A DNA stretch of 64,000 nt from Cyanidioschyzon merolae (Eukaryota). Location: the NCBI GenBank assembly GCA_000091205.1, contig AP006502.2; one strand, given 5' to 3'. This document shows, one piece after another, positions 13,293 to 43,005 of this stretch. The notes beneath the pieces are model-generated. The model saw only the letters and a list, made by a program, of their open reading frames with translations. It was not told the origin of the DNA and ran no database searches. The translations under genes and the position numbers were made by a program. Each line of letters opens with the position of its first letter. The first letter of the stretch is position 1.

Positions 13293-15602
13293 ATGAACTG
13301 CAGACGTCAGCTTACAATTAGAGCGCTCCATGGTGATGTAAAAGCTGAAACCTCGGATAAAAGACGCTGGAAACGACGTCTGCGGAGAGACGAGTGTTCG
13401 ATGCCGCCGACAGCGTCCGGCTGGACCCGCGGCAGCCGCTTGGACGCTGCTGGTGTCGCAGGCGTTGGCGGTGCGCAGCCTTCGGACCAGGACGCTGCCT
13501 GCCTTCTCTGGTGCGAACGATTCCGGCCGACGTGCGTTGAGGAGTTGGCTGTGGCGCCAAAGAAACGAGTTGAGATCGAGACTTGGCTCTGTCACGCTTG
13601 GGAGACGTGTTCGAACAGCCAGTTCGAAGCTGCGCCCTGTGCGCCGCAAGTGGCACTCATTTGGGGCCCTAGCGGTGCCGGGGCGTCAGCGACTTTGGAC
13701 GTTCTGGCCACCCAGCGATTTCGAGCGACGGTTGTACGATGGACTTGTACCGATCGCTACTTTGACACCGAGCTGGGAAGCGCCTCAGTACTGGAGAGCT
13801 TTCTAGAGTTTCTGTTGATGGTAAGCAACACGCCCGCGGATGAGTGGCGTGGCAACGCTAGCTTCACTCAACGGAGTTCGGTGACGCATCTACGCCAGCA
13901 GAACCAGCCTGGTGCGGAGCGGCTTGGGGCTAATGCCTCCGCCGGACACCACCACGACCGATATCTCGCCGTCGTCGAGGACTTTCCTGTGGGCATCCAA
14001 GAGCGCGACCACGCAGTTTACAGTTCGTTCCAGAGTCGTTTGCTTGCGCTGCTTGCCGGACTGCGACTGCCTTTGGCCTGGATCTTGCCCAGCGACCCGC
14101 ACTGGCGTGCTCGCCAGATTCGCTTCTTGTTCGGAGGCCAGGCAAAGCTGCCGGATCAGTTGCCGCCGTGGGTGCGACACATTGAGTTTCTCCCGGTGAC
14201 TGAGAGGCGCATTCAAACAGTTTTGCTTCAAATTGCCGCGAGACTGGCTGATGCGCGCGATGCCGATAGGTTTGGACGTTCCTCGGCACTGGAGCAGATT
14301 ACGGCAGAGTTAGCTCGACGATGTGCTGGCGACATCCGTCGGGCCATTCAATGGATGCAGTTCTGTTTCGTGGGCCAGGCGATGGAGCCTATTGCTGCGC
14401 CTGGTACGAAACCAACCAAGAGGGGACGCTTTCTTGAAAATTGGAAATGCTTGTCTGAACTGATGCAGCATTTCGAGGGAAATGCGCGGATCGGTCTCAG
14501 CCATATGATCGCGAGAATTCTCTACGATAAGCACCAAGCAGAAGAATGGCAGATCGATGATGAATACTGCATCGATGACATTGGACGCTCGTGCAATGCT
14601 GATGGAGATATCGGCAACATCACCTTGCCGACAACGGCTACAGAGTGCTCTATGTTTCTCAGTGCTTTGCACGAGAATTTCGTCGAGCATTTCGTACGAA
14701 TAGAGGACGTCGCTTTAGCGCTAGCGGATTTTAGTTACGCTGATATGATGCAGCGCAATAAGCTCGATGTCGAAGCGGTGATCGCGCTCCAAGTTGCTGT
14801 TTGCGGTGTACGCTGCGCCAACCGGTGCCACGCTCCTGCAAGGTTTCGGCCAATTCGTCTGCAGCCACGTCGGTATGGAACGCACGCCATCCGACCGAGT
14901 TCGACGTTGTATGATGAAAACGTGAACGATTATCGTGATGCGACAGGGCTTGGGCGTCGTGCATGGGAGCCGGCTGCGTTTACCATGCGGAGCAAAGCGA
15001 CACAATTACCGTGTTGGACATCCCCGGCGAATGACACGCTGGAGTCGGCTGAGTCCACGGCTCTGTTCCTGGATCCTATCGAGGATGCGGATAGCCGCCC
15101 GAGCAGGGCATCAGAAAACACAGGTCAACCTCTCCGTAACGATTGCACAAGGTCGGCAACACTACTAGAGACCACTCACGTATCGACAATCTGTGCACCC
15201 TGGTCTTCCAATCGTAGGAGGCGCTACAGCGTGCGAGTGATCAACGACAATGCGCTGCCGATGCACAGCGTTTCTGCAAATGCATCACGCATCTCAGCGG
15301 AAGCGGGACGCGCTCCTGGACCCTGGAGCGACCACGAGCCGGCAGCAGCATTTGCGGTGGGTCTCGCGAGCGATGAGTTCGGTCTGAGCGGCGAAGCGCA
15401 CTTACCGAGCAGCCGGAGACAACGCACATCCACATCGGGGACGTCACCCTCGCCAGCATACGAATCTTCAGTCGGAGAGGACACTGTGAGACGAGCCCGT
15501 GTTTCAGAGGCCCTTTCGCCCGACATTGAGCCTCGGGATCAAGTCCTGCATTGTCTCTTGGATATGTATGAGAAACGCACTGACCATTTGTGTGCATCAT
15601 GA
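13293..15602 (+). CDS. Rad17/Rad24-like checkpoint clamp loader subunit (RFC1-like AAA+), Walker A degenerate
   Basis: LWCERFRPTCVEELAVAPKKRVEIETWL matches the Rad17 N-terminal motif (W..K..P....EL..HKKK..E...WL). The Walker B region YLAVVEDFPVGIQERDH and the sensor-2 region CAGDIRRAIQWMQF match Rad17. Walker A reads GPSGAGASATL where GPPGCGK[ST] is expected. A long S/T/P/R-rich C-terminal tail follows. Confidence 0.75.
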   Translation: MNCRRQLTIRALHGDVKAETSDKRRWKRRLRRDECSMPPTASGWTRGSRLDAAGVAGVGGAQPSDQDAACLLWCERFRPTCVEELAVAPKKRVEIETWLCHAWETCSNSQFEAAPCAPQVALIWGPSGAGASATLDVLATQRFRATVVRWTCTDRYFDTELGSASVLESFLEFLLMVSNTPADEWRGNASFTQRSSVTHLRQQNQPGAERLGANASAGHHHDRYLAVVEDFPVGIQERDHAVYSSFQSRLLALLAGLRLPLAWILPSDPHWRARQIRFLFGGQAKLPDQLPPWVRHIEFLPVTERRIQTVLLQIAARLADARDADRFGRSSALEQITAELARRCAGDIRRAIQWMQFCFVGQAMEPIAAPGTKPTKRGRFLENWKCLSELMQHFEGNARIGLSHMIARILYDKHQAEEWQIDDEYCIDDIGRSCNADGDIGNITLPTTATECSMFLSALHENFVEHFVRIEDVALALADFSYADMMQRNKLDVEAVIALQVAVCGVRCANRCHAPARFRPIRLQPRRYGTHAIRPSSTLYDENVNDYRDATGLGRRAWEPAAFTMRSKATQLPCWTSPANDTLESAESTALFLDPIEDADSRPSRASENTGQPLRNDCTRSATLLETTHVSTICAPWSSNRRRRYSVRVINDNALPMHSVSANASRISAEAGRAPGPWSDHEPAAAFAVGLASDEFGLSGEAHLPSSRRQRTSTSGTSPSPAYESSVGEDTVRRARVSEALSPDIEPRDQVLHCLLDMYEKRTDHLCAS

Positions 15603-16492: not shown

Positions 16493-17176
16493 CTATACCA
16501 GATGCTTGACGAAACCGAAGCCGATAACAACGACGGCGTACAGTGCCAGCATTGACCAAATCACGAGCATCTCGGTCCTGCCCGGTACCATGTCCGTTCG
16601 CCGGTGGCTCTTGCTTCGATCACATGCATCCAGCAGCACTCCGAACGACTCGATAAGCAAGATGAGCGGGATCACAATCCACAAAACGTTGGCAAAAAAG
16701 AGGTAGACCCACTTGTGGACCCAGCTATTCGCCGGGTTCAGCTCGCGACTGCCGGTGAGCCACTCCGGACCGAACGTCATCCAGTTGCCGTAAATTTCAC
16801 CTGTTGCACAAATCACTTGCCAAAAATGTCGCCAAGGCCGTCGTCGGTATGTCCCATAGGCGAGAACGAGCGCTAACGGACCCCAGAGAAGCGCCGTCGG
16901 CACCTCAAGTGCCGCGGTGCAGTCGTGAAGACGACCCCAACGCGGATCCGCCTTTGCGTACTCTTTCCACGGTAGAGCCATGAAGTGATTTGAGCGCTCA
17001 ACTGTCACGGTGAGGGTAAGGATGAGCCACGGCAGCTCGAGCCCCAAGTGCGTGATCGCGTCCAGCAGGTACCAGACGATCACCGCTTTCTCGCCGGGAG
17101 TCAGCGGGTCGTCTGCCTTGAGGACTCGCGGAGCACTGCCCGAGCTGCTACTTTTATTCATCGCCACGTTCGCCAT
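16493..17176 (-). CDS. EBP-family sterol delta8-delta7 isomerase (emopamil-binding protein / EXPERA domain)
   Basis: LPWKEYAKADPRW, ALLWGPLALV, GEIYGNWMTF and NVLWIVIP align to human EBP motifs LWKEYAKGDSRY, CLWGPLSLW, GQIYGDVLYF and NALWLVLP. Catalytic-residue equivalents are present: H and E in THLGLE, E and T in ALEVPT, N and W in NVLW. ATG start. Confidence 0.85.
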   Translation of the reverse strand: MANVAMNKSSSSGSAPRVLKADDPLTPGEKAVIVWYLLDAITHLGLELPWLILTLTVTVERSNHFMALPWKEYAKADPRWGRLHDCTAALEVPTALLWGPLALVLAYGTYRRRPWRHFWQVICATGEIYGNWMTFGPEWLTGSRELNPANSWVHKWVYLFFANVLWIVIPLILLIESFGVLLDACDRSKSHRRTDMVPGRTEMLVIWSMLALYAVVVIGFGFVKHLV

Positions 17177-38901: not shown

Positions 38902-41900
38902 TCAGAGACTCACGGTGGCACTGGTTCGAACCAGGATACTGCTGCTGCTGCTGCTGCTGCTGCTCATCTCGTCGAACATCGAGTCATCGGTGTGAACACC
39001 AGCTGACACCGCCTTGCGATGCGCTCGTGTCGGAGACGATAACGCCGCCTGTCCCGATGTATACGCCGCTGCCGCTGCTCCTCGTGTTCTTTGCGGATGC
39101 ATGAGGTCACTGGAACGCCTACCCTCGCGTCCTGGACGCAGCAACTCGTGTTCAGCGGCAAAGTGGCCACGACGGTAGCGGCCGCCACGGCAACCAATAC
39201 GATGAATATCCCGGCGATCGACGTGCCGCCTCGACAACACCGCTGCTGCCTTTCCTTGTGCATCTTCTTCATCCTCCTTTGCCTCTATCTCTATCTGAAT
39301 CGCTGCCTCTGCCTCTGTCGTTGACGTGTGCATCGAACGTCCACCACTCTTGTCGCCAAGGCGGCGGGGCGATCGACGGCGCCTGCCCTGTGCGTTGAAA
39401 CAAGGATCGGCACACAAGATGCCGTCTTCACCCGTATCGACGTCTTCTTCGTCTTCGTCTTCACGATGGTGACGATCACGACCATCATCGGTGTCGCCGA
39501 ATGTAATCATCCAGGGGATATCGCCCAAGATACCGTTTCCAAAAGGCCCGAGGTCGTGTTCCAGTGGATCACCGGTCCACTGCCACCACTTGGGATCGAT
39601 CACGATATCGCCGTCACCGAGATCATCCGACTCCGGCCTGAACGGTGACCACAGACCACTCGACTCGTCCGAAGACGATAGTCGTAGTAGTTCTCGTTCA
39701 TAGGCATCGATCTGTCGCATACGCTGGAGATGACGATAAGCAAATGCCAACTGGCCCAGGTTACGCGAACGCTTTCGACGCTGCTGCCTGCGACAGGATG
39801 TGCGTCGCCCGCTACGCACTCGTTCCGTTGCTTCGGTGAGCGCTGTGGCGGAAAGCATCGGAGGCTCGGAGCGTACGCTCTCGCGACGATGTCGCTTAGG
39901 ATGCCTGCGTCGAGCCTCGCGATACACTGGTGACGCATTCTCGATATGGTCAGCACCACAATTACGATCATCGTCATCGTCATCAGTCAAGCTTTTCGGG
40001 GTTGCAGCTCCAGCACCGTGTCGTACCTGCGCTGCACGCCATGTTGCTGCTGCTCTTGGCGGTGGCGAGGGCAGGGCATGCTCACACGTCGCTACTGCCG
40101 TTGCCACTGCCACTGCTGCATGATCGAGGTGTTCACGCACGCTACCAGCATCCGGTGGTTGTGCTGTATCACCGCCAGCTTGCACTGGTATTGGCGTTCG
40201 TTCAAGCGCTCCAGTCGGTTCCGTTCGTGCGGAAACGGTACCAGATGCAGGCATCGTGCCAATGGGCGCACTCAACGCATCTTGTACCGTTGACGGTGCA
40301 ACGTGCGGCACGTGCTCATCAGAAACACCGGTTACCGATACGTCGCGAGTGTCATCATCGGATATCTTTGTCGAATCTCTTCCGGGCGCTGATCTCTCCT
40401 CAGCGGATTGCAGCGGTGTTGCCGCGGGATCCCTCACCGTCGCTGCGAGATGTCGGCCTACTGCTTCGATAATGGTGTCGACGCTGACCATGTTGGCAGC
40501 AGGGTCGGTAACAGCCTCGGAAGATGCGGCACGCTGATCAGCGACCTGCGCAGTGCTCAGTACGGGATCCGTTCCGGGATGCTCACCAGGTGTTGGGGCA
40601 GCTGCAGCTAGCGCCGCTCCAATATGTCTCCCCGGAACAACCAGGTATCGTCGATGAGCGGCCGAGGACGCACTTGCACCTAACGAAGGCGCCTGTGGCG
40701 TGACGTCCACGCGTAAATCCGCTGTTGAAACTGCCTCCACGAATGCCTCTGGCGTTGCTTCCGTTTCCTGACGCAGTGCCTGGTGTGGTATAAGCAACAC
40801 GAGGCCGTGTGTCGTTTTGATCGAGGTAATCGTAATGCGCTGATCACCGGCGTACGCTGGCAGCGTCGCAGTCGGTCCAATCGTTTCCGCTGATACCGGT
40901 CGATACTCTTCGATGCTGCCAAAGAGCACGCCTTCTGCCTCACTGGAGCTGGATACATCACTCTCCGCGGAGGATACGTCCGCTGCCGCATCGCTGCGCG
41001 ACAGCGCATGCTCAACATCCGTCACAGAGGCACAGTCACTGCACGAACAAGTGATGTCGAGGTGCTTGTACAGCTCGACCTCTGCTTCCAGACACTGGCC
41101 ACAGCTGCACGACACGCCATGCGCGGCGATGCACCGGTACTCGACGCCGTTCGAGAACATCGCTGTATCGCCAGTGATGCCTGCAACCAGACCGTCTGCA
41201 ACCTGGGGAATTGCTGCCAGGTCTGGCAGCAAGAGTCGAGATGCTTCATCGTCAAGGAGCAGGGCCCGTGCGTCCGTGTTCTCATTCTGGATCACTGTCC
41301 CGGAGGATGGAGCCCCGCGCTCGGGAGCACTCGCTGCATTGGGACCGGATGCACCAGCTGCGGGGCCGAGTTTGTCACCCAGCTGCTGAATCGTAGCCAT
41401 TCCAGCAAGCGCAGCACGATTCGGGACTGCAGTGGACCCGGTTCCATGCCCCAGGTTCAGATCCTGGCCAGTGTAGACTTCGCAATCCGGATGCCTCAGG
41501 AGATAGGCTTTCAGATTTTTGGCCAACGGCGACGCATTTCCCGAAATTTTCAGCTTCTTCACTCGATTCCATATGGGTACGTGCTCGCCGAGGCCTCCGC
41601 TCCCACTGCGCGCATCAAAAGAGCGTAGACGGCCCTGTTCATCGAGATCTTGGCCACAATATACTTCACAATTGGTGTACTTTGCTAAGTATTTGCGCAG
41701 GTTTTTCGCCAAGGGTGCAGCGTTGCCGCTGATTTTGCGCAACTCTTCGCGGTTCCAAATAGCGACCCGATCCTTCGCCCGATACTTGATGGTTTCTTGA
41801 TTCTGGGGAATGGACACTACGAGAATGACGGGATCCGCGAGATCACCATTCGAACCGGGTTTCTCTACAAAGCGCACATTCTGCTGGACGAGCGATGACG

Positions 41901-43005
41901 GCGTCGTGTCGAGCGCGGGGCGCCATGCAGACTGCTCTGGGGCAGCGTTCATGTTCGTTACAGTAGTGCTGTTCGTTTCCGTATGTGCGGATTCGGTGCT
42001 CCCCGGAGCACCACATGTATTGGAGGATGGTTCCGAATCCGCGGCTGGAGGTGTGGACGGTAGCTCGCAGGCTGCGCTTGCCCCGGTAGCCGCAGATTCT
42101 CCCGTTTGTGCAGGCGTCAGTGCCGAAGCGCTCGACATTTCAGGGATTCCAGCGGCACCAGTGCCTGCAGTGCGCCCTAGTGCACACGCTGGAGGCACTG
42201 CATGGCTCGGCGATAGCTGCGAATACTCGTTTGCCGTGTTTCCTGCTGGATCGGTGACGTCAGACTCCAGCATCGGTGCTTTGCGTTCATGAGCTGCAGT
42301 TTTCGAGCTGCCTTGTATTTCGCTTGCGCTTCGTAATCGATTGTTCTCTACGTTGCCCACAGAAGCGTTCGACAATTCGGTGAGCTCTGGGGTATTTACC
42401 GCGAGGGGCGTATCCGCATACTGGACGCCCTCGTCGGATCGAACTGCTGCCGTTTCTTGCTGGTCCTTCTCAACGTCCGGAGAACCGTCTCGAACAACAA
42501 CCTCCCCTGCTTCGTCTCCAGTTGGAGCTTGTGCAGCCTCTACAGATTCCAGCACCCTTTCAAGCGCACTCTCCCGTGCAAATGTTGATGGAGGTCGCTG
42601 TGGATTGCCTCGCACGGCATCCGATACGATTCGGTTCGCATCTGTGTCTGCGCAAGCATCCACCGTTACACATTCAGCCGGCACTTGAACTTGGCGAGCA
42701 CCGCGCTTCTTTTCGATGCTGATACGTTCTGCAATTGTTTCAGTTGTTGGCTCCAAAGTGCCCCTAGCGTCATGCTGCTGACAGTTGATATTGCTCCATG
42801 GTGCACGAGCAACCGAAGGTAGCGTTCTCCTAGCGGATACGCTCACTCGGGTGGCTGCTTTTCGGGTTAGGCCACTTGTCTGGGTGCAGGCCTCGTCCGG
42901 CGGTGCGTGCACCAGGGACTCCAGCTCGACACCCGGGCATCCACTGCTTGGCGGACTCATCGGAACCCCATCCGAAAACTCAGTGGCTTGTTCAAGCTCG
43001 GTCAT
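38902..43005 (-). CDS. large (1367 aa) low-complexity protein with tandem ~45-aa helix-extension-helix (LEM/HeH-like?) modules and a Cys-rich segment
   Basis: ATG start at 43003-43005 ([10 protein letters not shown]). The body is S/A/T/P/E-rich. Two adjacent repeats read [40 protein letters not shown] and [40 protein letters not shown]. A Cys cluster reads [36 protein letters not shown]. The C-terminus is acidic and then basic, ending in polySer encoded by (CTG)n at 38940-38964. Confidence 0.6.
   Translation of the reverse strand: [1367 protein letters not shown]

Follow-up and report, generated by a model that had tools for sequence, protein, structure and literature searches.

In human, Saccharomyces cerevisiae and Schizosaccharomyces pombe the A-subunit of the loader of the 9-1-1 checkpoint clamp is RAD17, Rad24 and Rad17, respectively (structures 7z6h, 7st9, 7sgz and 8fs3). 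The pocket of Rad24 holds ATP-gamma-S (ATP, adenosine triphosphate), with the lysine of the P-loop, or Walker A motif, hydrogen bonded to phosphate (PMC9010301). Hydrolysis in the yeast complex has been assigned to Rfc4, Rfc3 and Rfc2, where it drives clamp release, while Rad24 keeps its ATP even in the adenosine diphosphate state of the complex and the arginine finger of Rfc4 is not catalytically placed; the ATP bound to Rad24, which is also coordinated by R128 of Rfc4, was proposed to be structural and to stabilise the Rad24-Rfc4 interface (bioRxiv 10.1101/2021.09.13.460164). Mutation of the Walker A lysine is reported to be tolerated in yeast Rfc1 and Elg1, whereas Rad24, Ctf18 and human RFC1 critically depend on this residue (PMC3865047). 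Apparently, the lysine is required in the characterised systems since the bound ATP glues Rad24 to Rfc4, and not for hydrolysis. Here we describe the Rad17/Rad24 orthologue encoded in a 64,000-nucleotide stretch of the red alga Cyanidioschyzon merolae (contig AP006502.2, hereafter the window), in which this otherwise invariant lysine is replaced by alanine, and we show that the loss of the lysine is shared by its relatives.

The gene is an open reading frame (ORF) on the plus strand whose product is identical to C. merolae 10D BAM83448.1 / XP_005539484.1, and both the gene and its Rad17-like label were already known from the database annotation "similar to DNA repair protein Rad17-like protein". 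Were translation to begin at M37 (nucleotide 13401) instead, a 733-residue form (MPPTASG...) would result, as called in several metagenomes; Met1 (nucleotide 13293) is plausible because an N-terminal 'R..IR' is also conserved in the orthologues. By homology the protein is a Rad17/Rad24 orthologue, as the first-pass annotation of this DNA had stated. The Rad17 P-loop domain of Pfam (PF03215) matched residues 72-142 with 31.7 bits against a gathering score of 23.8, and also matched five of six close relatives with a best E-value of 5e-19. The top match of a phmmer search of the PDB was human RAD17 (7z6h_B), and a profile built from four lysine-less orthologues found human RAD17 with E=5.4e-31 over profile positions 65-504, which is nearly the whole core, followed by Rad24 at 5e-8 and RFC4 at 4e-6, while no Rfc1, Ctf18 or Elg1 chain was found by this profile at E≤1e-3. 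An AlphaFold model built from a 116-sequence alignment (mean predicted local distance difference test, pLDDT, 80.7; predicted template modelling score 0.77) superseded a run with a 4-sequence alignment, which was unusable (pLDDT 32). The model comprises an AAA+ Rossmann domain, a lid and a helical collar, and its fold is closest to RAD17/Rad24: Foldseek against the PDB placed RAD17 (7z6h) at rank 1, then ten Rad24 chains, and only then Rfc1, Ctf18 and Elg1. The template modelling scores were only about 0.42 despite RAD17/Rad24 taking ranks 1-11, likely owing to a flexible arrangement of the domains. The paralogues Rfc1, Ctf18 and Elg1 were thus ruled out, as sequence, profile and fold searches all placed RAD17/Rad24 higher.

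The phmmer alignment pairs 'liwGPSGAGASATL' of the window protein with 'litGPPGCGKTTTL' of human RAD17 and puts Ala131 under the lysine, which fixes the Walker A motif at nucleotides 13665-13688. In the AlphaFold model a helix begins at residue 131 after a strand at 120-125, which is the canonical position of the lysine, with a local pLDDT of about 96. A slip of the motif register was ruled out, as the pairwise, hidden Markov model (HMM) and secondary-structure registers all agree, and no shift brings a lysine or arginine into the loop, the nearest basic residue in the sequence being R142. The first-pass annotation had allowed for such a shift, and also for close relatives with a canonical GK[ST] that would point to a sequencing error; both were looked for, and the relatives too lack the lysine, carrying Ala, Leu or Met at the site. 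Three assemblies obtained independently from strains at 99% identity, namely a Logan run and a pair of Joint Genome Institute (JGI) metagenome contigs, carry identical codons, the pair being all the further near-identical C. merolae-like contigs that a metagenome scan yielded, and the alanine codon GCG lies two base changes away from lysine. Combined with the lysine-less orthologues at 25-43% identity (Table 1), these codons rule out a sequencing or assembly error. The orthologues come from Cyanidiococcus yangmingshanensis, from a hot-spring metagenome (locus L001, where the deposited gene model is truncated at its N-terminus) and from a cyanidiophyte-like relative with a genome of 70% GC (protein P0004 at locus L004). 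At the window as well as at L001 (6644-7285) and L004 (2875-3522), an EBP/EXPERA gene lies directly downstream of Rad17 on the opposite strand, tail to tail, and this common neighbour implies that the lysine-less genes are true orthologues. A Cyanidium caldarium model (P0051, EukProt ctg_512.g231) reads GPPGCSAGVSA and also has no lysine, but was left out of the count because it looks frameshifted, or an intron was missed, just past the P-loop; its similarity to Rad17 vanishes right after this motif and returns near 'FHLMGKILHDKH'.

To judge how rare the change is we relied on an exhaustive profile search of 1.84 billion cluster representatives, since word-indexed homologue searches with the single protein and with two alignments returned three proteins each and did not reach distant Rad17s. 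The profile search gave 438 matches at E≤1e-3, of which the best 150 were read. With HMM registration, the lysine is kept in 143 of the 143 other representatives among these 150 that cover the site, the cyanidiophyte group aside. In the 116-sequence family alignment the column holds lysine in 112 of 115 sequences, alanine in two and methionine in one. In a neighbour-joining tree from 431 well-occupied columns, a clade made up of the four lysine-less proteins had a bootstrap support of 83/100, with the lysine-containing P0092 and P0099 as their next relatives (78/100). The simplest reading of these sequences is one ancient loss of the lysine. Some Rad17s elsewhere keep the lysine and lack the following S/T, the usual ligand of Mg2+, namely P0035 and P0079 (GKK), P0055 (GKM), P0123 (GKF) and P0005 of Laodelphax striatellus (GKL), which suggests that the ATP site of Rad17 is evolutionarily labile in other lineages too. 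A search of the literature accessible to us found nothing relevant on Rad17, Hus1, Rad9, ATR or 9-1-1 of C. merolae, or on a naturally degenerate or lysine-less Walker A motif in Rad17.

The remaining motifs of the ATP site were compared using conservation counts from the 116-sequence alignment, with residue roles taken from published work on RAD17/Rad24. The Walker B and sensor-2 motifs hold as the first-pass annotation had assigned them, 'vvEDFP' and 'caGDIRRAIQ' aligning with 'lvEDLP' and 'csGDIRSAIN' of human RAD17. Five of the eight P-loop positions, the [ED]D of Walker B and GDxR are invariant among the lysine-less proteins. Sensor 1, at the end of strand beta-4, is Ser in 72 sequences, Thr in 31 and Asn in three, and is Pro solely in the window protein, Cyanidiococcus and the metagenome orthologue; besides the loss of the lysine, Pro266 is thus a second change that affects the ATP site. 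When the columns that are at least 80% conserved elsewhere were considered, only the lysine and R414 (His in C. merolae; His or Asn in the group) were found altered in all four lysine-less proteins, and basic residues were gained in all four at R92, R272 and R507. Judged by its motifs, the window protein falls outside the definition of an active P-loop AAA+ ATPase.

The elements that contact DNA and the clamp showed a mixed picture. In the basic patch K90 and K91 are kept and the equivalent of His81 is Ala, R92 being the gain common to all lysine-less orthologues. The helix that recognises the 5' junction keeps H404, R408, Y411 and K413 (R398, K402, Y405 and K407 in human; H341 and K345 in Rad24), and K91, H404, K/R408 and K413 are kept throughout the lysine-less proteins. 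The base-stacking Phe of this helix (F340 in Rad24, F397 in human, Phe in 97/116) is Ser403 in C. merolae (14499-14501) and Ser or Cys in its sub-clade, and a near-invariant Gly (107/116) is Ala407 (14511-14513). The clamp-interaction motif, KYxxL in human RAD17 and RYLVM in Rad24, has [KR] in 78, [YF] in 88 and L/V/I in 109 of 116 sequences; KYxxL has been reported essential for 9-1-1 binding in human RAD17. The canonical motif is absent from the window protein, and the corresponding residues read SYAPSL in Cyanidiococcus, SYMPSS in the metagenome orthologue and canonical RYPSL in P0004. Sensor 1, the base-stacking Phe, G407 and the clamp motif are changed in addition in the sub-clade of Cyanidioschyzon, Cyanidiococcus and the metagenome orthologue. 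Since RYPSL, the Phe and the Ser of sensor 1 are all retained in P0004, the lysine was lost first and the other changes followed later, in one sub-lineage.

Table 1. Features of the Rad17 orthologue of C. merolae, its lysine-less relatives and the syntenic marker gene. Positions are those of the window unless a locus is named; fractions refer to the 116-sequence family alignment.
Feature	Position	Strand	Remarks
Rad17/Rad24 orthologue ORF	13293..15602	+	769 residues; Pfam, PDB sequence, profile and fold searches
RFC box II WCERFRP (W73...P79)	13509..13529	+	W in 108/116, P in 112/116
Basic patch binding double-stranded DNA, APKKR	13554..13568	+	equivalent to Rad24 81-HKRK-84, human HKKK
Walker A / P-loop GPSGAGAS	13665..13688	+	G125, P126, G128, G130 and S132 conserved
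Codon GCG (Ala131) at the invariant P-loop lysine position	13683..13685	+	phmmer and family alignment
Degenerate clamp-interaction motif NTPAD (residues 179-183)	13827..13841	+	family [KR]-[YF]-x-x-L
Walker B VVEDFP (E229, D230)	13971..13988	+	conserved; phmmer and family alignment
Sensor-1 position, Pro266	14088..14090	+	family S/T in 103/116
Sensor 2 GDIRR	14328..14342	+	G346 and D347 in 116/116, R349 in 115/116
5'-junction recognition helix SHMIARILYDKH	14499..14534	+	equivalent to human 397-FRALGKILYCKR, Rad24 340-FHAIGKVIHGSH
Acidic motif DPIEDAD	15072..15092	+	aligns with Rad24 DPIVDSD
Predicted C-terminal helix	15534..15596	+	conserved with the metagenome orthologue (LLHGLLDVYEKQ)
EBP/EXPERA sterol-isomerase-like gene	16493..17176	-	syntenic marker, also in L001 and L004
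Cyanidiococcus yangmingshanensis orthologue (P0002)			43% identity; P-loop GPSGAGAS
Hot-spring metagenome orthologue, full ORF	L001:3620-5887		36% identity; P-loop GPSGAGLS (TTA, Leu)
Cyanidiophyte-like relative P0004	L004		25% identity; P-loop GPPGTGMS (ATG, Met)

Compared with RAD17/Rad24, with which it has in common box II, the K-K patch, the ED of Walker B, GDIR, the lid, the collar and the helix H..[AG][KR]IL[YH].K, the window protein thus differs in the lysine (Ala), sensor 1 (S/T to Pro), the clamp motif (KYxxL to NTPAD) and the stacking Phe (Ser). It further differs in an insertion of about 40 residues before the Walker B strand and in a C-terminal tail of about 240 residues that is predicted to be disordered. 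The insertion (residues 184-222; 13842-13958) follows the clamp-interacting helix, is modelled with low confidence (pLDDT <50), and is present in the Cyanidioschyzon sub-clade and far shorter in P0004, P0092 and P0099. The acidic motif and the predicted helix of the tail could be partner-binding elements, for example for RPA; motifs of the form D-x-I-E-D-[FW]-[DS], which resemble DPIEDAD, end many Rad17 homologues. The adjoining genes of the window are unrelated housekeeping genes, encoding an ammonium transporter, the EBP/EXPERA protein, an aminotransferase and a cation-efflux protein. Besides Rad17, three more ORFs of the window match C. merolae 10D proteins exactly, all encoded on one contig, which identifies the stretch as nuclear DNA of this unicellular alga. 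Elsewhere in the window (38902-43005, minus strand) lies the gene for a 1367-residue hypothetical protein, CMT538C, whose sole match was a BRK domain (E=5.5e-9) and which is unrelated to Rad17.

From these comparisons we infer that the cyanidiophyte Rad17 is probably a functional but non-catalytic A-subunit. As the large A-position subunit it would complete, together with Rfc2-5, the 9-1-1 clamp loader, acting there as a scaffold that recognises the 5' junction of single- and double-stranded DNA and docks on the neighbouring Rfc4-like subunit; the clamp would be opened and released by Rfc2-5, through their own binding and hydrolysis of ATP. Lacking the lysine, the site would either hold the structural nucleotide weakly or have protein-protein contacts in its place, and the pocket of Rad17 would be kept as an interface element. 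The first-pass annotation had argued that a Rad17 without the lysine implies loading driven solely by the small RFC subunits. This matches the yeast assignment and is therefore not new in itself, as hydrolysis has already been placed in Rfc4, Rfc3 and Rfc2, and the claim needs qualifying in that the unusual part is the loss of the lysine which holds the structural ATP. Its other premise, that P-loop lysine mutants of Rad24 are defective, agrees with the literature (PMC3865047, PMC9010301).

Several observations weigh against a functional, non-catalytic subunit, and they bear on the rival explanations as well. As the Walker A lysine of Rad24 is needed for function in yeast, a loader that lacks it would be expected to fail unless something compensates, and a search among the alignment columns for a compensating basic residue, in which the gains R92, R272 and R507 came up, identified none. 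In addition, the P-loop glycines, the Ser, Walker B and sensor 2 are retained, so the site could still bind and use ATP. One may indeed suppose that ATP is still bound and used in the pocket, where the P-loop amides, Ser132 with Mg2+, Walker B, the sensor-2 Arg and arginines of the neighbour (R128 of yeast Rfc4 also coordinates the ATP of Rad24) would hold the nucleotide, or where a recruited basic residue might replace the lysine. The conservation of G125, P126, G128, G130, S132, E229/D230 and G346/D347/R349 in all lysine-less lineages across deep divergence speaks for this, as does the gain of R92, R272 and R507 in all four lysine-less proteins, and the retained glycine-rich loop, Ser132, Walker B and GDxR do argue for some continued use of the pocket. 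Against it, varied non-polar residues (A, A, L, M) have taken the place of the lysine, and a conservative K-to-R intermediate is absent; these replacements and the sensor-1 Pro of the Cyanidioschyzon sub-clade argue against normal ATP binding. The three basic residues gained in all four proteins offer no obvious phosphate ligand, as inferred from secondary-structure position, R92 lying in the DNA-binding patch, R272 in the helix after beta-4 facing away from its own site and R507 in the collar; they are unlikely substitutes for the lysine. On balance we regard a working ATP site as possible but unlikely.

The loss of KYxxL and of the base-stacking Phe in C. merolae also counts against the preferred reading, since a relaxed or altered function would explain it just as well. 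The gene might have been relaxed or repurposed, 9-1-1 loading having weakened or disappeared in these reduced genomes and Rad17 having taken another role, such as that of a clamp-independent sensor of 5' junctions or of RPA-bound DNA; besides the lysine, sensor 1, KYxxL, F403 and G407 are all changed in C. merolae. At L001 and L004 the Rad17 orthologues share only 36% and 25% identity with the window protein, whereas EBP remains at about 85% and 68%, and Rad17 therefore evolves much faster than this neighbour, although, as the gene upstream is strongly diverged too, it may be EBP that is unusually conserved. Within the species the ratio of non-synonymous to synonymous polymorphism of Rad17 is about 0.5-0.95, which would also weigh against a maintained function, but it comes from just 5-9 non-synonymous and 3 synonymous differences (L003, L007 and L008), counts that are too small for significance or inference; most of the non-synonymous differences lie in the tails, outside residues 72-530, and the upstream gene in L007 has 2 non-synonymous versus 3 synonymous differences. 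Against simple decay, all lineages and strains that were examined have an intact, full-length ORF, and the four lysine-less proteins agree with one another at more than 80 positions, among them those of the basic patch, the junction helix and the collar motifs. The lysine loss also predates the other changes, as P0004 testifies, and so is not part of a general decay. A relaxed or repurposed gene thus appears improbable to us. That the missing lysine is an artefact of sequencing or assembly, of a mis-registered motif or of a paralogue is hardly conceivable, given the shared codon in the reference genome and the independent assemblies and the lysine-less orthologues; nothing was found in its favour, the sole weak point being the unreliable C. 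caldarium gene model.

A more radical version of the non-catalytic subunit would be a nucleotide-free Rad17 in the cyanidiophyte checkpoint loader, with the Rad17-Rfc4 interface maintained by protein contacts and, in C. merolae, maybe a role as clamp-independent sensor of 5' junctions; we put this forward only as a speculation that is rather unlikely to hold. The delta subunit (HolA) of Escherichia coli and gp62 of phage T4 are ATP-free subunits at the A position, the motor residing in the B-D subunits. Loaders of the delta/gp62 type share the clamp-loader architecture (PMC9010301), and delta and gp62 are proposed here as a working analogy for the window protein, as non-ATPase subunits at the A position. 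The analogy has its limits: delta and gp62 lost the entire set of nucleotide-site motifs, whereas in the window protein the backbone of the P-loop persists along with Walker B and sensor 2, and there is no close homology, chains of the T4 loader appearing far down the Foldseek list (rank 35). Yeast Rfc1 and Elg1, which likewise sit at the A position of pentamers built on Rfc2-5, provide a precedent for a non-essential lysine at the A site (PMC3865047); they differ in that they still encode the lysine, its dispensability being a mutant phenotype and not the natural state, and in that they handle PCNA and not 9-1-1.

What we describe is a well-known protein that varies in its sequence, not a new system, and non-catalytic clamp-loader subunits are an established theme. 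The finding nevertheless warns that a protein annotated with a 'Rad17 P-loop domain' need not be an active ATPase. If true, a nucleotide-free Rad17 would be a eukaryotic reversion to the ATP-less A-subunit arrangement of bacteria and phages. The cyanidiophyte protein would be an example from nature that runs counter to the need for the P-loop lysine in Rad24/Rad17, and would offer a route to whatever compensates for it. Homologous recombination makes C. merolae accessible to genetics. An algal lineage that lives without the Rad17 lysine would thus be a natural experiment on the role of the A-site nucleotide in RFC-like loaders.

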